64,000 nt of DNA from Escherichia phage vB_EcoM_Maryam: the sequence record PQ799574.1; one strand, given 5' to 3'. Numbering within the stretch: the stretch's first letter is position 1; every line of letters begins with the position of its first letter. Shown here piece by piece: positions 295 through 32,583 of this stretch. The translations under genes were made by a program, and so were the position numbers. The notes beneath the pieces were generated by a model. The model saw only the letters and a list, made by a program, of their open reading frames with translations, had not been told where the DNA came from and searched no databases.

Positions 295-2022
295 TTAGCC
301 AATGTCAATCCTCGATCCATCAATTGTGTATTGACCAGATGAAATAGAACTCATAGATGCCATTTTTTCTGTCCAATCACCACCAACGTCCCAATCAACT
401 GTCCCAGCAACTTTCCAAGAAAGATTTCCATTTACTGTATTAGTCTGATTTCCTTCAACTAAAGTGGTAGCATCTCCTTTAACTGTAATGTCAGCATTAC
501 CTTCAACTACAATAGTAACATTACCTTTAACTAGAATAGTTCCATTACCTTCAACAGTTTTCGTTTCGTCGCCACGTACAAATATTGTATTGCTTCCATC
601 TATCTGGTGAAGACGATTATCCATGTTGTAATAAATTTCTGAACCACCGACGTTAGTCTTTTTATCACCGGCTACCAAAAAATTACCATCAGCATTTGTT
701 ATATCATACAAATTATCGACAGTTTTTCTTGTTCTTCTTCCTGACGGTGATACTTCTTCATAAGTTCCAGTTGGATGAACTAATCTGTATCGTTCTTGCC
801 CAGGGGTATCATCAAATTCCTGAATATGTCCGCTTTCAGTTTCCATTGTATGTACATAAGGATATTCACCTTTATATGAAGAAACTGGTTCTTTGAATAA
901 AATTCTCGAGTCATTTGGAATAGGAGGGTCAGCAGGGTCAGAAGATTTAGCTACAGTAGCAGCCATTGCTGATAGAGACCTAGCTGGGGTTTTCACTTCA
1001 ACACCGTATGATTCCAAATTCCCCGTAAGAATAATCATGGTAACACGGGATGCACGGCCTTTTGTTTGTTGATACCACAATGAATCACGACCGGCTTTAT
1101 ATGCTTTTTCCCAATCTCCGGCTAACATAGCAGTTAACATTGTGTTAAATTTAGCTACACCGCCAACACCCATTTGAAATGCCATATTTTCTAACGCCAT
1201 TTGACGAGAACGGTTGACAGCTTGCCAGACTGGTCCTACTTTAGAATGTGATTTAATGTCCCGTTGCATATCAGCCAAATCACGCTCAAATAAAGTCGTC
1301 GCCTCTTCCATTGTAATAGAACCTGGATTTCCTGTAATTTCACGACCAACTTGTTTTGATAAAACTTTATTAATTTGAGCCATATCACGAACTGGCTGTT
1401 TCATGATAAGATGACCAATACCAATTGTCGGATATCCTTCAGTATCCCAATAAACTTTTAGTCTTAATCCTTCATCACGGCGAAGCATTTCAGCCATTGA
1501 CATATTTGGATTATCATCAGTTGGAATCTCTGATAGTGGTCTATCATCGGGATTTATTGCGGTGTCTAAGTTACTATCTTGGATAACGTTAGAAGACGAA
1601 TCATATCCTACTTCTCCGCCTTGGTTTAGTACGTTAGTATCATTCCCTAAACGTCTAGGATACTGCCCAGTTGGGTCAGAAAATCCTTCAAGTCTATTCG
1701 GTTTTTCGCGAACTATTCCACCATACGTGCCAAGGACAATTCCGTTAGTTTTCCATTTGTCCAAAAAATGACCATAAACTCTAGTTCCTTCTACCGGTCC
1801 AGTAACAGAACCTCCAATTCCTGACATTGCTGCAGAAGTTATAGGTTGAATAACTGACATCCATGGTAATTTTTCAGTTGGAATACCCATTACATCACCT
1901 TGTGCTCTTTGAGGTGGATGCAGACCAACCACACGAACACGAACACGACCTAATTTTAATGGGTCCATTCTATCTTCAACAACACCAACAAACCAATTAA
2001 GGTTATTACTTATCATTTCCAT
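295..2022 (-). CDS. 5: baseplate central hub / tail-associated lysozyme gp5
   Basis: 575 aa; internal lysozyme motif DEGLRLKVYWDTEGYPTIGIGHL (same fold as gene e product); C-terminal VEGN/VKGN beta-helix repeats. Confidence 0.95.
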   Translation of the reverse strand: MEMISNNLNWFVGVVEDRMDPLKLGRVRVRVVGLHPPQRAQGDVMGIPTEKLPWMSVIQPITSAAMSGIGGSVTGPVEGTRVYGHFLDKWKTNGIVLGTYGGIVREKPNRLEGFSDPTGQYPRRLGNDTNVLNQGGEVGYDSSSNVIQDSNLDTAINPDDRPLSEIPTDDNPNMSMAEMLRRDEGLRLKVYWDTEGYPTIGIGHLIMKQPVRDMAQINKVLSKQVGREITGNPGSITMEEATTLFERDLADMQRDIKSHSKVGPVWQAVNRSRQMALENMAFQMGVGGVAKFNTMLTAMLAGDWEKAYKAGRDSLWYQQTKGRASRVTMIILTGNLESYGVEVKTPARSLSAMAATVAKSSDPADPPIPNDSRILFKEPVSSYKGEYPYVHTMETESGHIQEFDDTPGQERYRLVHPTGTYEEVSPSGRRTRKTVDNLYDITNADGNFLVAGDKKTNVGGSEIYYNMDNRLHQIDGSNTIFVRGDETKTVEGNGTILVKGNVTIVVEGNADITVKGDATTLVEGNQTNTVNGNLSWKVAGTVDWDVGGDWTEKMASMSSISSGQYTIDGSRIDIG

Positions 2023-2596
2023 AAGATTTCTCCATTATACGTATAAGGTCGTTCATAAATGAATTGATGTCTGATTTTGCTATTATTTTTATTTGACGAA
2101 GTTTTTCATTTTCAAGAACAGCAGCTTCATACGTATCGACCGCAGCAAGTGCTCCTTCATATTGAGGATATTTTCTAGCTTTATCACCTTTGTCATACCA
2201 AACATATGGATTATCATCGTATGATATTAAATTATAAAATTTTTCACCGTTCTCATTTACATGATATACTATTTGGTCTCCACCTACATTTTTGTATTTT
2301 TGTATAGATGCTTGATAAGCAGCTTCTTGTGAAGTAATCCATCCATAATACGGGTCATAATTATCATTACACATCAATAAAACCCAATACAACTGCGGAT
2401 TTCCATATATAGTATTTGCTAATTCTTCCGGGCGTGGTGAACCTTTAATATAATAAGTACGTAAGCGGTATCCCGCAAGAGCGCGTTTAAAATAGTCTTT
2501 ATAGTTTCTAAAAATATCTGTCATAGGAATAGTCGGCGCGTTTTTATTCACCGTTTTGGCCGCATATTCAATCGGATCAAAAAATGTAAAGAGCAT
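2006..2596 (-). CDS. 53: baseplate wedge protein gp53
   Basis: 196 aa; overlaps gene 5 start; T-even synteny 53-5. Confidence 0.8.
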   Translation of the reverse strand: MLFTFFDPIEYAAKTVNKNAPTIPMTDIFRNYKDYFKRALAGYRLRTYYIKGSPRPEELANTIYGNPQLYWVLLMCNDNYDPYYGWITSQEAAYQASIQKYKNVGGDQIVYHVNENGEKFYNLISYDDNPYVWYDKGDKARKYPQYEGALAAVDTYEAAVLENEKLRQIKIIAKSDINSFMNDLIRIMEKSYGNDK

Positions 2597-2609
2597 GGGC
2601 CCTCCTGTT

Positions 2610-2617
2610 TATAAATA
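2610..2617 (+). promoter_or_regulatory. late promoter TATAAATA for gene 4
   Basis: exact TATAAATA about 27 nt upstream of gene 4 ATG. Confidence 0.65.
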
Positions 2618-2624
2618 TATTATC

Positions 2625-2632
2625 TATTTATA
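2625..2632 (-). promoter_or_regulatory. late promoter TATAAATA (minus strand) for gene 53-5
   Basis: TATAAATA on minus strand about 30 nt upstream of gene 53 ATG; divergent with gene 4 promoter. Confidence 0.6.
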
Positions 2633-2643
2633 AGGAGAATCCA

Positions 2644-3096
2644 ATGGCATATTCTGGAAAATGGGTTCCTAAAAATATATCAAAGTATAGAGGTGACCCT
2701 AAAAAAATTACGTATAGATCAAATTGGGAAAAATTCTTTTTTGAATGGTTAGATAAAAATCCAGAAATTATTGCATGGGGTAGTGAAACAGCAGTAATTC
2801 CTTATTTTTGTAATGCAGAAGGGAAAAAACGTAGATACTTCATGGATATTTGGATGAAAGATTCTTCTGGACAAGAATTTTTTATTGAAATAAAGCCTAA
2901 AAAAGAAACACAACCACCAGTTAAACCAGCACATCTAACGACTGCAGCGAAGAAAAGATTTATGAATGAAATTTATACATATTCTGTTAATACCGACAAA
3001 TGGAAAGCAGCGCAAGCTTTAGCTGAAAAGCGTGGAATAAAATTTAGAATTCTAACAGAAGATGGATTACGAGCTCTTGGCTTTAAGGGGGCATAA
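2644..3096 (+). CDS. 4: head completion protein gp4
   Basis: 150 aa; synteny 53 / 4-2-3. Confidence 0.8.
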
Positions 3097-3920
3097 TGGC
3101 TATTTTTCAAATAATTAATGAAAGCACACCCCAAGTTCCAAAGGTTAAGCAATCATTAAACGAAAAGAAATGGATTCAGATAGGTCTTGAATATAAAAAG
3201 GCCAAAGCAAAAGGAATGACAGGAAAGCAATTTGCTGAAGAAAGAGGAATCAAATACTCTACGTTTACTTCGGCATTGTCAAAATATGCTTCGGGAATTA
3301 AAACGGCTGAAAAGATTCAAAAGCTTGAATCAAAACCAATGAATAAGCTCAATAAGCAAGAAAGACAACTGCTTATGATAAATTCATTCAGACAAACATT
3401 GCGCGATAAAATTCGTAATGAAGGTGCAGCAATTAATAATAAAACCAGAAAATGGTTTGCTGAAACTATTAAGCAAGTAAAAGGACATAAAGTTGTTCGC
3501 CCGCAGCCGGGACGAATATATGCTTTTGCTTATGATGCTAAACACAAGGAAACTCTTCCTTACTGGGATAAATTTCCTTTGATAATTTACCTTGGTTTAG
3601 GTAAGCATAATTTAATGTACGGATTGAACTTGCACTATATTCCACCTAAAGCTCGTCAGCAATTTCTAGAAGAGCTTTTAAAGCAATATTCAAATACACC
3701 TACTATTACTAATAAAACGAAATTAAAAATTGATTGGAGTCAAGTGAAAGGATTTAGGGGTGCAGACCAAATGATTAAGGCATATATACCTGGTAATATT
3801 ATGGGTAGCCTTGTTGAAATCGCCCCGAAAGACTGGGCGAACGTTGTGCTGATGCCACTTCAGCAGTTCGTTTCAAAAGGAAAACGTTTCTCTGCAAACA
3901 AAGTCTGGTCAAATATCTAA
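3096..3920 (+). CDS. 2: DNA end protector protein gp2
   Basis: 274 aa; start overlaps gene 4 stop; synteny. Confidence 0.8.
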
Positions 3921-4026
3921 TTCTATTATCTTCCATTCTTTTCTGTTGTTTGTTCTAAATGGAATTGAATGGAAGGGACTTAGACCCATTATACCACCAA
4001 CAGTTATAAAGCATTATGAGGAATAT

Positions 4027-4557
4027 ATGTCGCAAGCTCTGCAACAAATTTTTAACCAAGCAAATACAACTAACTTTGTAGTATCAATACCACATAGTAA
4101 TACTACATCTGCTTTTACTTTAAATGCTCAGTCAGTTCCTATTCCAGGAATTAGAATACCTGTTACTGATACCGTGACTGGGCCGTTTGGACTGGGCCGA
4201 GCACAACGTCCAGGTGTTACATTTGAGTATGATCCACTCATTGTGAGATTTATAGTTGATGAAGAACTTAAGTCGTGGATAGGAATGTATGAATGGATGT
4301 TAGGAACTAGCAACTATCTTACAGGTGAAAATACTGCCCAAAAAACAGGTCCTGAGTACATTACGCTTTACATCTTAGATAATAGCAAAACTGAAATCGT
4401 GATGTCAATAAATTTTTATAAGCCGTGGGTTTCTGACCTATCTGAAGTAGAATTTAGCTACACAGAAGATTCAGACCCGGCTTTAGTATGTACTGCAACG
4501 ATTCCTTACACCTATTTTCAAGTAGAAAAAGATGGAAAAATTATAGCAGAAGTTTAA
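4027..4557 (+). CDS. 3: tail completion / sheath stabiliser gp3
   Basis: 176 aa from ATG 4027 (ORF open from 3946); synteny 2-3-1. Confidence 0.7.
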   Translation: MSQALQQIFNQANTTNFVVSIPHSNTTSAFTLNAQSVPIPGIRIPVTDTVTGPFGLGRAQRPGVTFEYDPLIVRFIVDEELKSWIGMYEWMLGTSNYLTGENTAQKTGPEYITLYILDNSKTEIVMSINFYKPWVSDLSEVEFSYTEDSDPALVCTATIPYTYFQVEKDGKIIAEV

Positions 4558-4606
4558 TGCTTCAGTTTTGTGTGTTATAATCTTAATTAAATTTGAGGAG
4601 AAACAC

Positions 4607-5331
4607 ATGAAACTAATCTTTTTAAGCGGTGTAAAGCGTAGTGGAAAAGATACTACTGCTGATTTTATCATGAGCAATTATTCTGCAGTTAAATACCAAC
4701 TTGCTGGTCCTATTAAGGATGCATTGGCTTATGCATGGGGAGTATTTGCAGCAAACACTGACTATCCTTGCTTAACTCGTAAAGAGTTTGAAGGAATTGA
4801 CTATGATCGTGAGACTAATTTAAATCTGACTAAATTAGAAGTAATCACAATTATGGAACAAGCATTTTGCTATCTTAACGGTAAAAGCCCAATTAAGGGT
4901 GTGTTTGTTTTTGATGACGAAGGACAAGAATCAGTTAATTCCGTAGCATTTAACAAGATTATTGACGTTATAAATAATATTGAAGATCAATGGTCAGTCC
5001 GTCGTCTGATGCAAGCCCTAGGTACGGATTTGATTGTTAATAACTTCGACCGCATGTATTGGGTAAAATTATTTGCTTTAGATTATCTTGATAAATTTAA
5101 CTCAGGTTATGAATATTATATCGTTCCTGATACTCGTCAAGATCATGAAATGGATGCGGCTAGGGCGATGGGTGCTACAGTAATTCATGTAGTTCGTCCT
5201 GGTCAAAAATCCAATGATACACATATTACAGAAGCTGGATTGCCAATTCGTGATGGCGATTTAGTAATTACAAACGATGGTTCTCTTGAAGAACTTTTTT
5301 CTAAAATTAAAAATACACTAAAGGTACTATA

Positions 5332-5332: not shown

Positions 5333-6029
<697 letters not shown>

Positions 6030-6041
6030 TTTCACAAAGTT

Positions 6042-6074
6042 GTTTACATGGGGTTTTAGTAGTGATACTATTAC
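6042..6074 (+). promoter_or_regulatory. T4-type early promoter (-35 GTTTAC, -10 region AGTGATACTATTAC)
   Basis: GTTTAC plus extended -10 at the usual spacing; A/T-rich upstream; first copy of a direct repeat. Confidence 0.6.
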
Positions 6075-6107
6075 CCTATCAAAACAAATGTGAAATTGGA
6101 GAACAAA

Positions 6108-6341
6108 ATGAAAACGTATCAAGAATTTATTGCTGAAACTGCTGATGTAAAAGTTGAGTTTATTTACACTGGCAAGAAAGATAAAATGGGTGAAATGCCT
6201 CATGGAGTTCTTCGTGATGCATTAGATGATTTCGGTCAACTCGGTGGTGAAGAGTTTGGCGATTACTTTGTTATCTATGGCCCGGCAAAAGTCATTGAGA
6301 AATGGGCTGATAAATATAAATCAATTTTTCGTAAAAAATAA
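6108..6341 (+). CDS. internal protein (ipI position) with capsid-targeting N-terminus
   Basis: N-terminus MKTYQEFIAE equals the T-even internal-protein capsid targeting sequence; body differs from T4 IPI; alternative start 6090. Confidence 0.65.
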   Translation: MKTYQEFIAETADVKVEFIYTGKKDKMGEMPHGVLRDALDDFGQLGGEEFGDYFVIYGPAKVIEKWADKYKSIFRKK

Positions 6342-6374
6342 GTTTACTTTTAGATAGGGTAGTGATACTATTAC
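6342..6374 (+). promoter_or_regulatory. T4-type early promoter, second copy of the 6042 repeat
   Basis: GTTTAC and identical 22-mer agtgatactattaccctatcaa as at 6061-6082. Confidence 0.6.
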
Positions 6375-6399
6375 CCTATCAACTACCGAGGAGAATAAA

Positions 6400-6585
6400 A
6401 TGAAACGTTGTGAATTAATTCGAAATGTTGCTATTGCAATTTCTGCTTCCGCTTTTAGTTTTTCAATGTTTGTTGGATTTATATGCGGATTATTGACTAC
6501 AGCAGAAAATGTTTTTTCACTTGTAGTAGCATTTTTAATTGGTTTAATTGCTATCGTTATGGATAAAATTTCTAAAGGTGAATAG
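6400..6585 (+). CDS. small membrane protein
   Basis: 61 aa, hydrophobic helices. Confidence 0.5.
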   Translation: MKRCELIRNVAIAISASAFSFSMFVGFICGLLTTAENVFSLVVAFLIGLIAIVMDKISKGE

Positions 6586-6586
6586 A

Positions 6587-6967
6587 ATGTATAAAGTGTA
6601 CGCGGATTATCAGGCTAATCCATCTGAAAAGCCAGATTGCCAAATTGGATGGGCTCATGATACCCTGCTTGAAGCAGTAGATGCTGCTCAAAAATTAGGA
6701 TATAGTTATGTAGATATTGTTCAACCTGGTGGAACAGTTATTACTCTTGAAGAGTTCAATAACATTAAACCAAACTTTTTACTTTTTGCAGGTGATAATT
6801 ATTATCCTCGTGGTGGATATGCTGATTTAATCGCGAAAGCCGCTACTGAAGATGAACTTCGTGATATTATCAAAGAAAATGAAAACAAACCGATGTATGG
6901 TTCTAATCGCTTTGATTGGTGGCAAATTGTAAATGCCCATACTCATACTATTGTTGATGAAGGTTGA
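6587..6967 (+). CDS. hypothetical protein
   Basis: 126 aa from ATG 6587 with aaggtga RBS (ORF open from 6548). Confidence 0.5.
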   Translation: MYKVYADYQANPSEKPDCQIGWAHDTLLEAVDAAQKLGYSYVDIVQPGGTVITLEEFNNIKPNFLLFAGDNYYPRGGYADLIAKAATEDELRDIIKENENKPMYGSNRFDWWQIVNAHTHTIVDEG

Positions 6968-6969
6968 TA

Positions 6970-7257
6970 ATGATTCTTTATGCTAAAGTATCATCCATTG
7001 AAAATGGATATAAATATGATCAAGAAGCAGCTAAAGCCTTGATTGATGATTATGGCATTTTAACATGTTTTGAAGTTGAAAAGGTTTATGTTGACCGTTC
7101 ATCTTCTCAAGTTAAATTAGTGAAGGAAGACCGTAAATTTAATACAGTAAATTTTGATTTCTTTATTGAAACAGAAAAAGGTCCTCTTGGATATGATATT
7201 TTCAAGAATCCTTTGGGTCTTGAATGCATCGTAAATATGTATTATCATAAATGGTAA
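6970..7257 (+). CDS. hypothetical protein
   Basis: 95 aa from ATG 6970 (track start 6964 is TTG). Confidence 0.5.
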   Translation: MILYAKVSSIENGYKYDQEAAKALIDDYGILTCFEVEKVYVDRSSSQVKLVKEDRKFNTVNFDFFIETEKGPLGYDIFKNPLGLECIVNMYYHKW

Positions 7258-7354
7258 ATATGCTTTAAGAATTATTTGTTATTATTAACTCATACCGCAC
7301 TGATTAATACCCTCTATCATCAAGGGCTCTTGCTAAAGAGCCTTTGTTAATAAT

Positions 7355-7427
7355 TGGGAATTAGCCAAGTTGGTAAGGCACTGGATTTTGATTCCAGGAT
7401 GCAAAGGTTCAAGTCCTTTATTCCCAG
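7355..7427 (+). tRNA. tRNA-Gln (anticodon UUG)
   Basis: cloverleaf folded by hand: 7-bp acceptor tgggaat/attccca, anticodon loop ttTTGat, T-loop ttcaagt. Confidence 0.85.
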
Positions 7428-7428
7428 C

Positions 7429-7512
7429 GCGAGAATGGTCAAATTGGTAAAGGCACAGCACTTAAAATGCTGCGGAATGATTTCCTTGTGGGTTCGAGTC
7501 CCACTTCTCGCA
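7429..7512 (+). tRNA. tRNA-Leu (anticodon UAA)
   Basis: acceptor gcgagaa/ttctcgc, anticodon loop ctTAAaa, long variable arm, encoded CCA. Confidence 0.85.
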
Positions 7513-26735: not shown

Positions 26736-27263
26736 ATGAACGCTAAAGATATTTTCAACTTGGTAAATTACAACGATGGTAAATTTAAATCTGAAGCACA
26801 AAGCAAGTTCTTTAATGACATCTCAATCGGAGGTGAAATCACAGTTGATGGAGGACAAATTTACAAATCCCGTTGGAATTGGATCGTTATTATTGATGAG
26901 ATTGGTATTGTAGAAATTTATAAGAATACGAATAAAAATCGTACATTACACTGGTCTCGTGATACTAACGAACAGTACAAAAAGGATAAAGCATCTAAAT
27001 TATCTCGCGTAACTCAAGAAGATATTGAGTTCATCAAGAAAGATATTTTGATGTATGATAACTTAATTGCTGAAGAGCAAGCTGTTATTGATAAATTTGA
27101 CGAGATTAAAGCTTCTCGTGAAATTCCTGATTTTATGAAAGAATCAGTAAATGAACGATACACTCTCATTTCAGAGCGTATTGAAACTTACAAAAAGCAA
27201 AGAGCTGAACGCCAAAATACTCTTCGGAAGTTTGAAGAACGGTTAAAGACGGTACTCGCATAA
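26736..27263 (+). CDS. hypothetical protein
   Basis: 175 aa; ggagg RBS. Confidence 0.5.
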   Translation: MNAKDIFNLVNYNDGKFKSEAQSKFFNDISIGGEITVDGGQIYKSRWNWIVIIDEIGIVEIYKNTNKNRTLHWSRDTNEQYKKDKASKLSRVTQEDIEFIKKDILMYDNLIAEEQAVIDKFDEIKASREIPDFMKESVNERYTLISERIETYKKQRAERQNTLRKFEERLKTVLA

Positions 27264-27318: not shown

Positions 27319-27723
27319 ATGAAACAGTTGATAATTAAAAGATTGAATTTATTGATATGTTGTTTATGTGTAGTAGTTGCATATGGTTATTACGCAATTA
27401 ATGATTATATGCATTATAAAGATTATGATGTTACTGTAGTTAATACCCTTACAGGAACTCAAGGGAAGGGGTCTAGTTTATCGTTTATTGCTGTATATGA
27501 ACTAAATGACGGTTATAGATTTAGCGAATATATTTCACCGGAGATGTATTCTTCAATAGAAAAAGGTGATAATATTACTGTAAGTTTACGTCCTTTCGAC
27601 GTAAAACAGACACTGTTTGATAATATTGTTTGGTTCTTTGGAATGGTATTAGTTCAATCTGTATGCGGTGCTTATATAGTCTTTTCCATCATATTCTGTG
27701 TATTTAGTAAAATTGAAAATTGA
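27319..27723 (+). CDS. membrane protein
   Basis: 134 aa; N- and C-terminal TM helices. Confidence 0.5.
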   Translation: MKQLIIKRLNLLICCLCVVVAYGYYAINDYMHYKDYDVTVVNTLTGTQGKGSSLSFIAVYELNDGYRFSEYISPEMYSSIEKGDNITVSLRPFDVKQTLFDNIVWFFGMVLVQSVCGAYIVFSIIFCVFSKIEN

Positions 27724-28622
27724 GTGAGAAAAATATGTCAGTAGTAATTAATAATGTCAATGCAGTAATTAAATCTTTAGTTAATAAAAAATTAAATGAA
27801 TGGACTGTACTTCGTCGTGGAGAGCCAGATAAATTTTTTCATAGATTTAACCCAACTTTGGATTTGAATGTTATTGACAGAGATGTTCATGCTGAAATTT
27901 TAGATAAATTTAAAGTTGATATTGGGTTTGGATTAGATAAACATTTACAACGAACAAACGGGTCTGGAATGGGTTTATCTAATCGCATCATGAAAGCCCT
28001 TAATAAAATTGGAGCGTTGTCTCGTATTAATGCGAGTGAAATCCTTCGCAATTATAATAAAGGATATGACCTTTATGGTCGACTAATGCCGAAATTATCA
28101 TTCGATCAAATGATTGCGGATTTGTGGGAAAATCAACGACGATTATTAGCATTAGGCGCTCGATTAGCTAAAGGTTTAGATAAACAAATGATTTTTAAAA
28201 CTAATAATACAGAAGACCTTAAATGCTTTAAATTTAGCACTCGTGGAGATGATTATTACGTCAGAGCTCACTCTACAGATTATGTCAATATGGGGCATCA
28301 TCTCTGTTTAGCTTTTGAAGTTTTAAAGGAAGCTGGAACATTAGAATATGTGTCTGGTGCTAAATGCCCGATTGGTTCAAATTGTATTTTAATTTATCGC
28401 CCGGATGAATCCAGTTTAACTAAATTTCCTACAAAACCTGTACCAGTTCGTAGTAACGAAAAACATTCTGAACAAATTGATTATTTTAATAAGCAAATTG
28501 AAGAGCTGAATATTTCTATTCAACAATATGACGATGAAATTTTCAGACTATCTGGATTGAGTAGTAAAGCTAAATCTGAGCGTGAAAAATTAATTAAAAT
28601 TGTTGATTTACTTAAATCTTAA
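27720..28622 (+). CDS. hypothetical protein with C-terminal coiled coil
   Basis: 300 aa. Confidence 0.5.
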   Translation: MSEKNMSVVINNVNAVIKSLVNKKLNEWTVLRRGEPDKFFHRFNPTLDLNVIDRDVHAEILDKFKVDIGFGLDKHLQRTNGSGMGLSNRIMKALNKIGALSRINASEILRNYNKGYDLYGRLMPKLSFDQMIADLWENQRRLLALGARLAKGLDKQMIFKTNNTEDLKCFKFSTRGDDYYVRAHSTDYVNMGHHLCLAFEVLKEAGTLEYVSGAKCPIGSNCILIYRPDESSLTKFPTKPVPVRSNEKHSEQIDYFNKQIEELNISIQQYDDEIFRLSGLSSKAKSEREKLIKIVDLLKS

Positions 28623-28630
28623 GGAACACC

Positions 28631-29650
28631 ATGAAAACTCGTTCTCAAATTGAAGATATGGTTCGTAATGCCAGCTATACTCGTGATGTTATGACATTTT
28701 TGTGCCAAAATAATTTAGACCCTGATAAAGTTAATCGTGATATTCACTTTAAATATATGAATAGCAGTGAATGGTTACGTCATTTTAGTAAAGCGGGGTA
28801 TATTACACAAATGACTGCTCGTGAGCAGCTCACCGATTTCTGTAAAACTATTGATTATAAAAATCCTCTGTTTGTTCAAGGTGTTGGTCAGAGTAAGGTC
28901 GATTTATCATCTGGATTTTTCAATCCAAATCATTATCGTATTGAATGGAGATTTATTGCTCTATTCCGTAAACAATTAAAGCAAATTTTGTCGACGGCTA
29001 GTCGATTAAAAGGTTCTGACATTAACTTAAAGAACCTGAAATTTGATGGTTATACTCTTCAGATGGAAGTAAGACCATTAAAAGAAAATAATAGAACTGC
29101 ACGAATTAGCTTTAAACCTAATACAAAAAATTCTCTTTCAATTTGCGAATGCCTTAAATCGCAGTTGACAGAAGCATTTAAGTATATGGATGTTGTTGCC
29201 GCTGTTCATTCTAAGATTTTACCTCGTTTTGAGCGAAATTGGGAACATACAACAACATATGAACTTGATATGATCGTTTCATTTAAATACGATTTTTTGA
29301 GAAAGGATGAAGTCCCGCAAGAGAAAAAGCAAGAAGTGCAAGATAACTTAAATTTATCTAATTACTCATCAAACGATCCTAAATTTTGGATGTATAGTTC
29401 AGGCAATAAAGATGCATGGAAATTCAATAAAGTGAATTTTCTTCCTATTGAAAATCCGAGTCTTAAACCTGTTGAAAAATGGCACGCGGATGCGATTGAG
29501 AAGTCTATCAAGGCAGTAGATGATGAACTCGTTAAAGCGACCAATGAAGTGCTAGAAGCTGAAAAGATGCTAGAAAAAGCTCAAGAAAAAGTCAAAAATC
29601 TCACGAAGCAACGTTCTAAACTGAACAATGCACTAAATGCACTGAACTAG
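28631..29650 (+). CDS. hypothetical protein with C-terminal coiled coil (paralog family)
   Basis: 339 aa; MKTR N-terminus. Confidence 0.5.
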   Translation: MKTRSQIEDMVRNASYTRDVMTFLCQNNLDPDKVNRDIHFKYMNSSEWLRHFSKAGYITQMTAREQLTDFCKTIDYKNPLFVQGVGQSKVDLSSGFFNPNHYRIEWRFIALFRKQLKQILSTASRLKGSDINLKNLKFDGYTLQMEVRPLKENNRTARISFKPNTKNSLSICECLKSQLTEAFKYMDVVAAVHSKILPRFERNWEHTTTYELDMIVSFKYDFLRKDEVPQEKKQEVQDNLNLSNYSSNDPKFWMYSSGNKDAWKFNKVNFLPIENPSLKPVEKWHADAIEKSIKAVDDELVKATNEVLEAEKMLEKAQEKVKNLTKQRSKLNNALNALN

Positions 29651-29679
29651 TTTACTTTGCCACAAGGATGTGGTATAAT
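29650..29679 (+). promoter_or_regulatory. T4-type early promoter (GTTTAC ... TGTGGTATAAT)
   Basis: consensus hexamers. Confidence 0.7.
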
Positions 29680-29707
29680 GTTCTTACTTTCTACTGAGGA
29701 GATTATT

Positions 29708-30706
29708 ATGACTCGTAACGAATATATCAAATCATTCAATAGCGTTATTGATGATAAAGTTAAACCTATGTCTAGTAAGAATAGTGTGATTTCTATTATC
29801 AATCAATGGCTCAATAATACTGATGCAAGTATTGTTTCTTCCGGCAAATTTATTCATGAAGTTCGTGAAATTTCTAGCCGTGTAGATAAAGATGACATTA
29901 AGAAAACCTTTAAAGGGTCTCGTCTTCTTTCATACTTAGTCAACAGAGATATTCTTAGTAAATTTGGGAAAGAAATTAAACGAACTAAAGATGTAGTAGG
30001 ATATAATTGGTTCGGTGATGTTAATTCTTATCATCTTAATAAAGAAGCCCCTGAGAATATTTTTACTCGTCGTTGGATTAGTAATTTCAGACTTTTCAAA
30101 GGACAAATTCTAAAATCAGCTTCTAAATTATGTTATGGCGATTATCGTCAAATTCATCCTTTGGCTTCTGATATGATTATCGTAAAAGAATATGAGCTTG
30201 ATGAAAATAAAGTAGCTATTTTTGTGAATTATGGATTTTTTACACCAAACGCTAACCAAAAGAATATTAATAAATTTTTCTCAATTGCTAGCACTATAAC
30301 TTATCAATTAAAGGCGGTTTTGGGCTGTATGGAAACAGTAGAAAATATTCATACATATCCTTTTAAGAATATATGCGGTTGGGAAGGATATAAAATTGTA
30401 GTTAGTCTTCGTGAAGTGAAATGTACTTATTCACCTACTAGTAAAGAAATTTACCAACAAAAATGTGATGAAATTGTGAATACTCCTAAAGAAGAAACTA
30501 CCCTTGAGGAACTAATGGAATGTCTTGATGATTCACCTGAACCGGTAGAAATTCGTCCAGAAGTTATTGCATTAGAAAAAGCTTATAAAGAAGTTCTAGA
30601 AATTTCTAATAAAGCGCAGAAAGAATATGAGCAGGCTAAAAGGATTTGGGAAGAATCTGTCAATCGCTTGGATCGTCTTGAACAAGCTTTACAGTTAATT
30701 AAGTAA
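29708..30706 (+). CDS. hypothetical protein with C-terminal coiled coil (paralog family)
   Basis: 332 aa from ATG 29708 (ORF open from 29657). Confidence 0.5.
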   Translation: MTRNEYIKSFNSVIDDKVKPMSSKNSVISIINQWLNNTDASIVSSGKFIHEVREISSRVDKDDIKKTFKGSRLLSYLVNRDILSKFGKEIKRTKDVVGYNWFGDVNSYHLNKEAPENIFTRRWISNFRLFKGQILKSASKLCYGDYRQIHPLASDMIIVKEYELDENKVAIFVNYGFFTPNANQKNINKFFSIASTITYQLKAVLGCMETVENIHTYPFKNICGWEGYKIVVSLREVKCTYSPTSKEIYQQKCDEIVNTPKEETTLEELMECLDDSPEPVEIRPEVIALEKAYKEVLEISNKAQKEYEQAKRIWEESVNRLDRLEQALQLIK

Positions 30707-30760
30707 AATTTAAAGCCAAGGATGGCTCGGAGTATAAATCATTAACCAAGTGAGAAGAAC

Positions 30761-31687
30761 ATGAAAACTCGTAAACATTATATTGATTATTTTGACAGTC
30801 TTATTACTAAACATCGTGATTATCAGATAGGACACAGAGCAGTAATCAATAATATTCTTCGTGATTTTTTAGACTATATTGGATGGGAAAACCATATTTG
30901 TAAAGATACACAAAATGCGTATTCACATTCTCTTGGTTCTTTGCTCGAGTGGTTCAAACGTTCCCGATTACTATCTTCTGTGATAGCTGTTAATAATGTT
31001 AAAAAATTTATGTATCCAAGCTACATTGAGACTAATGTATCAAATGCTAGTGTTGTTACATTTAATATTATTAACGATGTGAAAAGAACTTATTTAGAAG
31101 AATGGTTTTCTAAAGATAGTAAAGAAAAATTTGCTAGTGAATTTTCACACGAATTCAATAATAACGTGAATATGCTTTTTAAGCATTCTCGTAGACTGTT
31201 TTGTCATGGTGATAACCGTACTATTAATGTGAATGTAAAAGACTGGGTTACGGCTAAATTCATTCCATCGTCCCAGAATGGACAATTTGAATTGTCAATT
31301 ATCGTTTGCGCTCCGCATGAGATATATAAAAATCTTCCGTATATGAAACCACGCGAAGCTAATAAACACAATGAAACTATTAGTTCTTTGGCTTATAATT
31401 TGCGCGTGTTATTATCTGATATGGATGTAGTCAAATCCTTTGATGATAATACGAATTATGGTCTTTCACTGTTTGAAACTAAATTTGTTATTAAATTAAA
31501 GGACCCTAGTGAATTTAAACCTACACCAAAATCTAATCATGGAAATGATACTATGAAAGAAGAACGCGAATATCTCAATGCTCGTTTGATTGAAGTTGAA
31601 AAACAAATTGAAGAGCATACTAAAGTTCTTAAGGCTTTAACCGCCAAAGCAAATGGTTTACGTGATGCTATTGAGGTACTGAAATGA
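30761..31687 (+). CDS. hypothetical protein with C-terminal coiled coil (paralog family)
   Basis: 308 aa; MKTR N-terminus; RSRLLS motif shared with the 29708 ORF. Confidence 0.5.
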   Translation: MKTRKHYIDYFDSLITKHRDYQIGHRAVINNILRDFLDYIGWENHICKDTQNAYSHSLGSLLEWFKRSRLLSSVIAVNNVKKFMYPSYIETNVSNASVVTFNIINDVKRTYLEEWFSKDSKEKFASEFSHEFNNNVNMLFKHSRRLFCHGDNRTINVNVKDWVTAKFIPSSQNGQFELSIIVCAPHEIYKNLPYMKPREANKHNETISSLAYNLRVLLSDMDVVKSFDDNTNYGLSLFETKFVIKLKDPSEFKPTPKSNHGNDTMKEEREYLNARLIEVEKQIEEHTKVLKALTAKANGLRDAIEVLK

Positions 31688-32319: not shown

Positions 32320-32583
32320 ATGTTTAAAGTATATGGTTATGATAGCAACATTCATAAATGTGTGTATTGCGATAATGCAAAACGTCTTTTGACCGTGAAG
32401 AAACAGCCGTTTGAATTTATCAACATTATGCCGGAAAAAGGTGTTTTTGATGATGAGAAAATCGCTGAGCTTCTGACTAAACTAGGTCGTGATACTCAAA
32501 TCGGCTTGACAATGCCTCAGGTATTTGCTCCTGATGGAAGTCATATTGGTGGATTTGACCAACTGCGAGAATATTTTAAATGA
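32320..32583 (+). CDS. nrdC: glutaredoxin/thioredoxin NrdC
   Basis: 87 aa; CVYC redox motif; matches recalled T4 NrdC. Confidence 0.9.
   Translation: MFKVYGYDSNIHKCVYCDNAKRLLTVKKQPFEFINIMPEKGVFDDEKIAELLTKLGRDTQIGLTMPQVFAPDGSHIGGFDQLREYFK

Follow-up and report, generated by a model that had tools for sequence, protein, structure and literature searches.

A function has been described for one of the genes that lie between nrdC.10 and nrdC in phage T4. A T4 clone with genome deletions failed on ECOR17 owing to dsr1, and the clone plated again on dsr1-bearing MG1655 once T4 nrdC.5 alone was expressed (Srikant, Guegler & Laub, eLife 2022, PMC9391042). According to a 2026 preprint (PMC12803255), the trigger of the tetratricopeptide repeat (TPR) sensor of Dsr1, a sensor that Avs7 also has, is the major capsid protein of the phage. 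A literature search on nrdC.3, nrdC.4 and nrdC.6, their domain of unknown function (DUF) and PF numbers, and the mechanism of Dsr1 inhibition found nothing beyond the 2022 study. Here we analyze the homologues of these four genes in a 64,000-nucleotide stretch of DNA from Escherichia phage vB_EcoM_Maryam (sequence record PQ799574.1; the whole stretch is called the window), in which an earlier reading of the letters alone (the sequence-only reading) had singled out four consecutive open reading frames (ORFs) at 27720-31687 as a rapidly diversifying paralogue family, perhaps of adaptor or sensor-decoy proteins. The best explanation of the locus, and one we hold to be moderately probable, is that it is the T4-type nrdC.6-nrdC.3 paralogue block, encoding early accessory inhibitors of host defence.

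The window derives from the genome of a T4-like phage (Tequatrovirus), in which its four ORFs are identified as nrdC.6, nrdC.5, nrdC.4 and nrdC.3. A megablast search with 27720-31687 matched 502 phage records, nearly all of them Escherichia, Shigella or Yersinia T4-like phages, with 100% identity in Escherichia phage vB_EcoT_BCU-2 and 90-99% identity in approximately 490 Tequatrovirus records; these are the gene names used in the records that annotate them. The four-ORF arrangement is far beyond chance and is kept in over 450 phage records. The original T4 record and RB5 show the same order (nrdC.11 ... nrdC.6,.5,.4,.3,.2,.1, nrdC), with which the neighbours in the window agree: an RlaP-type nucleotidyltransferase (nrdC.11), an AAA protein (nrdC.10), the glutaredoxin-fold nrdC, endonuclease VII and NrdD. 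The ORFs are consecutive, as the sequence-only reading had it, and lie on the same strand; after two start corrections they encode 295, 339, 332 and 308 amino acids:

27735..28622, + strand: nrdC.6 homologue, 295 amino acids (phrog_2257, E 4e-152; PF26899 Phage_T4_Y05B homologues of 295-296 amino acids)
28631..29650, + strand: nrdC.5 homologue, 339 amino acids (Pfam DUF7235, E 1.8e-126; the T4 orthologue is the known anti-Dsr1 protein)
29708..30706, + strand: nrdC.4 homologue, 332 amino acids (phrog_1435, E 1.3e-164; PF26897 Phage_T4_Y04OP)
30761..31687, + strand: nrdC.3 homologue and nrdC.4 paralogue, 308 amino acids (phrog_1435, E 1.3e-100)

NrdC.6 of the window is 96% identical to T4 NrdC.6, and all 105 of its homologues carry PF26899; PF26897 is likewise present in all homologues of ORF 29708. 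The ORF at 28631-29650 matches DUF7235 with 422 bits (cut-off 30) over protein residues 1-339, a match that Pfam did not give for any of the other three ORFs. Its product is 93% identical to T4 NrdC.5 over the full length, and both genes sit between nrdC.6 and nrdC.4. The start of nrdC.6 is most likely ATG 27735 rather than TTG 27720, since the homologues are 295-296 amino acids long and the PHROG profile alignment begins at residue 6. The maximal frame of the third ORF opens at TTG 29657; the homologues use ATG 29708, behind a GAGGAG ribosome-binding site.

Shared architecture and probable homology of the four proteins

To judge kinship we compared the four proteins with each other by BLASTP, by profile alignment and by predicted structure. 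NrdC.4 and NrdC.3 form the sole significant BLASTP pair (24.5% identity over 200 residues, E 4e-5), and HHalign joins their families with a probability of 98.2% (E 4e-14). By sequence they are clearly paralogues, already catalogued together in PHROG phrog_1435 and Pfam PF26897. With narrow family alignments, HHalign gave E 0.004 for NrdC.5 against NrdC.4 and nothing for NrdC.6. When the NrdC.5 profile was broadened with the divergent middle-slot proteins of VR7, JS98 and RB69, its alignment with the NrdC.4/3 profile reached a probability of 92% and E 5.6e-7 over 142 columns (NrdC.5 residues 50-202, NrdC.4 residues 66-221), and reversed-profile controls gave E values of 0.2-0.5. In addition, AlphaFold2 models of NrdC.5 and NrdC.4 have a common order of elements (long helix, beta-hairpin, helix, beta-hairpin, linker, long terminal helix), and an N-terminal M(K)TRxxY/I start is common to NrdC.3, NrdC.4 and NrdC.5-type proteins. 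Homology of NrdC.5 to NrdC.4/3 is thus well supported. The two resemblances on which the sequence-only reading was built lie in homologous alignment columns: the "MKTR" start is that of ORFs 28631 and 30761 (ORF 29708 starts MTRNEY), and the "RSRLLS"-like segment reads KGSRLLS or KRSRLLS. All-against-all alignment, which that reading had proposed as a check, joined NrdC.4 to NrdC.3 by BLASTP and NrdC.5 to both by broadened HHalign, and left NrdC.6 with non-significant E values; the proposed paralogue family accordingly stands for nrdC.4 and nrdC.3, has good support for nrdC.5, and is probable, not proven, for nrdC.6.

The alignments share a motif, [FL]-x-K-x-G-x-L-S-x-x-x-A-x-x-x-L-x-x-[FY], followed by a helix that ends in LL-x-x-[GA]-[AS]-[RK]-L-x-x-G. 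In the window this core is found at the following positions:

27993..28175, + strand: NrdC.6 core motif, residues 87-147 (KALNKIGALSRINASEILRNY ... LLALGARLAKG), from the HHalign register and a shuffle test
28778..29017, + strand: NrdC.5 core motif, residues 50-129 (RHFSKAGYITQMTAREQLTDF ... ILSTASRLKGS), within the HHalign match over residues 50-202 (E 5.6e-7)
29903..30139, + strand: NrdC.4 core motif, residues 66-144 (KTFKGSRLLSYLVNRDILSKF ... ILKSASKLCYG), from the alignment and model helices 61-84 and 118-141
30947..31210, + strand: NrdC.3 core motif, residues 63-150 (EWFKRSRLLSSVIAVNNVKKF ... LFKHSRRLFCHG), from the alignment

The sequence-only reading had also held that each protein ends in a coiled coil of about 50 amino acids, and this was borne out in the heptad pattern. 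As a coiled coil we counted a continuous helix of at least 4 heptads with heptad periodicity and hydrophobic a and d positions. All four tails, 46-59 amino acids long, qualify: each fits one heptad register without a break, 75-88% of its a/d positions are hydrophobic, and hydrophobic periodicity is maximal at 3.5 residues, with 7-12 times the median power. The tails are:

28452..28619, + strand: NrdC.6 C-terminal heptad-repeat helix, residues 240-295 (75% hydrophobic a/d, periodicity 3.5)
29471..29647, + strand: NrdC.5 C-terminal heptad-repeat helix, residues 281-339 (88% hydrophobic a/d, periodicity 3.5)
30557..30703, + strand: NrdC.4 C-terminal heptad-repeat helix, residues 284-332 (86% hydrophobic a/d, periodicity 3.5)
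31547..31684, + strand: NrdC.3 C-terminal heptad-repeat helix, residues 263-308 (85% hydrophobic a/d, periodicity 3.5)

AlphaFold2 predicts one long helix at residues 280-338 of NrdC.5, with a predicted local distance difference test (pLDDT) score of 73-90, and another at residues 284-331 of NrdC.4, with which the NrdC.3 helix aligns. A cruder heptad score placed the best stretch of NrdC.6 and NrdC.5 at the C-terminus, above 200 of 200 shuffles; its signal in NrdC.4 and NrdC.3 was less strong. Tail conservation within each family slightly exceeds that of the rest of the protein, and in the NrdC.4 family the last 20 or so residues are the most conserved block. A similar terminal motif, L-x-x-A-[LI]-x-x-L-[KN], occurs in the same heptad phase in all four proteins, and the helix is also present in members from JS98, VR7, RB69 (NrdC.6 and NrdC.3), Acj61 and Klebsiella phage 311F.

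Two deposited proteins depart from this pattern. In T4 record U76612, nrdC.6 (locus 6623-7450) encodes 275 amino acids and exits the family frame inside the C-terminal helix (…QIEELIFLFNNMMMKFSDYLD), which could reflect either a frameshift in laboratory T4 or an error in the old sequence. The RB69 protein labelled nrdC.5 (300 amino acids, locus 5973-6875) matches the NrdC.5 core, and its last 40 or so residues (…PPWTNCLLNWTRHKLSSVMLKVL) are unlike a heptad helix; the tail of this middle-slot protein may be frameshifted.

Some candidate relatives were set aside. An NrdC.5 hidden Markov model match on RB5 NrdC.3 (hmmsearch, E 1e-8 in a 59-sequence database) was a gapped artefact and was dropped. 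NrdC.8, considered as a short relative, gave non-significant E values (0.04-0.2) in profile comparison with each of the four families, and Acj61 p118 and a 272-amino acid Klebsiella neighbour showed no profile link. The nrdC.8 gene (window 26736-27263, 175 amino acids) likewise encodes a charged helical tail (…ERIETYKKQRAERQNTLRKFEERLKTVLA), and a 175-amino acid protein of Klebsiella phage KPV15 is among the fold matches of both the NrdC.4 and the NrdC.5 models.

Distribution, divergence and possible function

The position between nrdC.10 and nrdC is shared by T4, RB5, RB69, JS98, VR7, Acj61 and Klebsiella phage 311F. The presence/absence comparison suggested with the sequence-only reading brought out a graded copy number: four in T4-type phages, three in RB69, JS98 and VR7, and two in Acj61. 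The syntenic 324-amino acid protein of phage 311F matches the NrdC.4/3 profile (HHalign E 2.9e-6). Fold matches of the NrdC.4 model comprise approximately 15 uncharacterised proteins of 300-370 amino acids, all from T4-like phages, whose hosts are Enterobacter, Acinetobacter, Pectobacterium, Klebsiella, Erwinia, Serratia and Yersinia. Among them are E5E4A1 and E5E4A2 of Acinetobacter phage Acj61 (330 and 304 amino acids), which have the same lengths as two adjacent genes between nrdC.10 and nrdC. Word-indexed searches of 5.8 billion proteins with each family returned T4-like phage sequences only, and a related-locus search with NrdC.3 returned 2 near-identical loci only. A full HMMER search of 1.84 billion representative proteins with the combined NrdC.4 and NrdC.3 profile gave 9 matches. 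All are members of its own family; nothing led from them to NrdC.5 or NrdC.6, and none was a cellular relative. We take these proteins for an ancient syntenic family across the Straboviridae; the link of the anti-Dsr1 protein to its neighbours and to this family is new here.

To place the rate of change of the four genes, we compared them with the genes around them. Between the window and RB69, JS98 or VR7, the four proteins are 23-55% identical or absent, and NrdC.11, NrdC.10, NrdC.8, NrdC and gp49 are 67-92% identical. Within Tequatrovirus the corresponding values are 60-98% for the four proteins and 99-100% for the neighbours, and the ratio of nonsynonymous to synonymous substitution rates (dN/dS) is 0.06-0.37 as against 0-0.09. 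The four genes thus change faster at the protein level than their neighbours and are still under net purifying selection. The "rapidly diversifying" of the sequence-only reading holds relative to the neighbours (23-55% versus 67-92%); with dN/dS below 1, it does not amount to a demonstration of positive selection. NrdC.3 exists in two allele classes in Tequatrovirus, 92-100% and approximately 60% identical to the window. The adjacent nrdC.2 has a high synonymous divergence (dS 0.9), and together these observations suggest allele exchange by recombination across nrdC.3-nrdC.2.

The four genes are dispensable and plastic. Phage ACG-C40 (locus 6802-7213) carries a natural deletion of approximately 2.7 kb that joins nrdC.5 at about codon 68 to the end of nrdC.3 and removes nrdC.4; three of the four genes can thus be missing from a viable phage. 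In a hybrid gene, found in at least 4 assembled metagenome contigs (for example at 3570-4900 and 1931-3261 of two of them), residues 145-271 of NrdC.5 are fused to residues 134-308 of NrdC.3, with an N(K/N)VN microhomology at the junction; nrdC.4 is lost, and a 115-amino acid N-terminal fragment of nrdC.5 lies upstream. In NrdC.6 of Shigella phage Sf25 (378 amino acids), approximately 83 residues of the N-terminal domain (176-258) are tandemly duplicated.

The block is also predicted to be transcribed early, because T4 annotates early promoters in it and the window has a matching promoter, located by a promoter scan:

29651..29679, + strand: predicted sigma-70-type early promoter upstream of nrdC.4, TTTACT-17-TATAAT with extended TG

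Its position is that of the annotated T4 "early promoter 50.0" in the nrdC.5/nrdC.4 gap. The GC skew of the window changes sign near 46 kb, which fits a switch from a rightward early-gene block to oppositely transcribed genes.

On the explanation that we favour, the four genes would descend from one ancestor by tandem duplication and would have diverged almost past sequence recognition. The proteins share a two-part build. The N-terminal part, of approximately 235-280 amino acids, carries the core motif and would be a domain of helical plus alpha/beta type (long helix, beta-hairpin, helix, beta-hairpin); past a flexible linker comes the C-terminal heptad-repeat helix of 46-59 amino acids. All four proteins would be made early and would inhibit immune proteins of the host stoichiometrically. 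Surface variation in the N-terminal domain could direct each paralogue to a target of its own, while the conserved tail helix could serve oligomerisation or docking on a common partner and so allow avid binding of oligomeric defence proteins. A protein-inhibitor model is proposed because sequence searches linked none of the four to an enzyme family or a solved structure: Pfam and NCBIfam gave nothing above threshold in the four proteins except the family's own DUF, and sequence searches of the PDB gave only spurious matches to designed helical repeats. The sequence-only reading, with its adaptor or sensor-decoy proteins, had pointed to the right territory, anti-defence, in that T4 NrdC.5 overcomes Dsr1 (PMC9391042); its decoy or adaptor mechanism is conjectural, and an anti-defence role of NrdC.3, NrdC.4 and NrdC.6 remains presumptive.

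Several observations weigh against this explanation. The functional data concern NrdC.5 alone, in its T4 allele, and direct binding of Dsr1 is putative. Values of dN/dS below 1 in all four genes do not demonstrate an arms race. In the NrdC.4 helix, Tyr, Trp, Ala and Ser occupy the a/d positions where a canonical zipper would have Leu/Ile, so this helix could pack intramolecularly or on a target instead of self-associating. T4's own NrdC.6 is without the end of the helix, which means that the tail is not indispensable or that the T4 copy is defective. The AlphaFold2 model of NrdC.5 is poor (pLDDT 56.6, from a shallow alignment with 91% mean column identity), which makes fold comparison with it weak. 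Finally, the HHalign E values of NrdC.6 (0.0035-0.045) are non-significant, and its structural link is one Foldseek match between two predicted structures.

The alternative that survives best accepts the family and limits the anti-defence function to NrdC.5, with NrdC.3, NrdC.4 and NrdC.6 in other early host-takeover or regulatory roles. We found no functional data for these three proteins, and both the low dN/dS and the conservation of NrdC.6 within the genus (96-98%) are in keeping with such roles. The three nevertheless resemble a proven anti-defence protein in build and, as far as predicted, in fold, have been lost or rearranged in nature, and diverge far more than their neighbours, with 23-55% identity between genera and NrdC.3 alleles at approximately 60% within one genus. 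Fast divergence combined with loss and rearrangement is typical of host-range genes. We regard separate roles as possible and of limited weight.

The favoured explanation, inhibitors of defence in all four positions, has a wider form, which we put forward tentatively. The NrdC.3-6 scaffold may be a diversifiable anti-sensor platform in which each paralogue or allele blocks a different sensor-plus-effector abortive-infection protein, and duplication, hybrids and allele exchange retune the host range of T-even phages. Dsr1 and other proteins that share the capsid-sensing TPR sensor with Avs7 would be examples of such targets.

The position of NrdC.6 and the less probable explanations

It could be that only nrdC.5, nrdC.4 and nrdC.3 are paralogous, and that nrdC.6 is unrelated and has come to a similar length and an amphipathic tail helix by convergence or coincidence. 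Neither BLASTP nor the first HHalign run connected NrdC.6 to the others, its N-terminus is not of the M(K)TR type, and the NrdC.4/3 profile did not retrieve it in the HMMER search of 1.84 billion proteins. Its own profile gave E 0.0035 and 0.012, and merging NrdC.3/4/5 into one profile was no help (E 0.045). The scores of these comparisons (29.4 and 25.8), however, were reached by 0 of 100 column shuffles (mean 15, standard deviation 2.5, maximum 23.1), and they also exceed the reversed-profile controls. The weak alignments all fall on the same motif, and the three pairwise alignments agree in register (NrdC.6 K87 = NrdC.5 R50 = NrdC.4 K66); within the NrdC.6 family, the motif region is the best-conserved block. 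Moreover, nrdC.6 adjoins the other genes syntenically in every genus examined.

Predicted structures point in the same direction. The AlphaFold2 model of NrdC.4 (pLDDT 83.4, predicted template modelling score 0.68) matched NrdC.6 of JS10 in BFVD by Foldseek with E 6.5e-5, probability 1.0 and a template modelling (TM) score of 0.37-0.43. For calibration, the same model matched BFVD NrdC.3 of fPS-65, a proven homologue, with E 4e-8 and a lower TM score of 0.28-0.30. A Cronus protein is a fold match common to the NrdC.4 model and the poor NrdC.5 model. Because of the scores that beat the shuffles, the consistent register and the match to JS10 NrdC.6, we consider NrdC.6 likely to be a distant member of the family, and an unrelated NrdC.6 unlikely. 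As far as we found, the superfamily link of NrdC.5 and NrdC.6 is new; databases keep them as separate families of unknown function.

Structural-protein mimicry is still less probable. Here the alpha/beta core would imitate a late virion fold of the tail-terminator or tail-completion type, and the early-made protein would act as a non-activating decoy in the defence sensor. The likeness to such proteins (lambda gpU-like, SPP1 gp17-like) is one of fold only, with identity of at most 8% and no sequence-family match, and nrdC.3-nrdC.6 differ from them in being early rather than late genes and in lying in an accessory region rather than a tail module. That NrdC.5 and its relatives are enzymes that offset depletion of nicotinamide adenine dinucleotide (NAD+) or modify a defence protein, rather than binders, is very improbable: Dsr1 is an NADase-type defence and other phages do counter by rebuilding NAD+ (NARP3, PMC13464706), but there is no enzyme family match in Pfam, NCBIfam or PDB sequences, no invariant catalytic-looking residues were seen across the paralogues in the alignments, and a build with a coiled-coil tail would be typical of binding proteins.

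Comparison with known systems

The genes themselves, the paralogy of NrdC.3 and NrdC.4 and the function of NrdC.5 were already known. In terms of existing families, ORFs 29708 and 30761 are members of PF26897/PHROG 1435 (NrdC.3 and NrdC.4), and ORF 27735 is a member of PF26899/PHROG 2257 (NrdC.6). GenBank records widely apply the label "thioredoxin" to these genes, wrongly: Pfam found no thioredoxin or glutaredoxin domain in the four ORFs, and the true glutaredoxin-fold gene of the window is nrdC, at 32320-32583. Many deposited genomes name nrdC.3-nrdC.6 (and nrdC.10) "thioredoxin", and one has "Mur ligase domain-containing protein"; the former name was apparently taken over from locus labels of the form "nrdC.x".

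The nearest characterized protein is T4 NrdC.5 (DUF7235), of which the product of ORF 28631-29650 is the orthologue. The other three ORFs are at most 25% identical to NrdC.5 and have no DUF7235 match, but they share its size and C-terminal heptad helix, and profile comparison finds its core also in NrdC.4 and NrdC.3. Few inhibitors of sirtuin-type abortive-infection defence are known, and NrdC.5, which counters the SIR2-type protein Dsr1, is among them. If it is part of a four-gene array that reaches the T4-like phages of Klebsiella and Acinetobacter, each phage would offer three candidate anti-defence genes, in many alleles; the conserved core motif and the C-terminal helix would be the targets for mutation, and the natural deletions and hybrids would be ready-made genetic tests.

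Among inhibitors of sirtuin defence, DSAD1 is comparable in outline, being a protein by which phages disable DSR2, a SIR2-type NADase defence that is in turn triggered by a virion protein. DSAD1 comes from Bacillus phages and is known to bind DSR2 directly, whereas binding of Dsr1 by NrdC.5 is putative; we found no relation in sequence or fold between DSAD1 and the NrdC family. In its setting the locus resembles the hyperplastic accessory regions and anti-defence clusters of T4-like phages, being an early, non-essential, fast-changing block between nrdC.10 and nrdC that undergoes copy-number change, deletion and hybrid formation. One such cluster of T4 is the dmd-tifA-adfA "anti-TA (toxin-antitoxin) island" (PMC9391042). 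It differs in composition: unrelated small genes lie there, and apparent paralogues of one fold at nrdC.3-nrdC.6.

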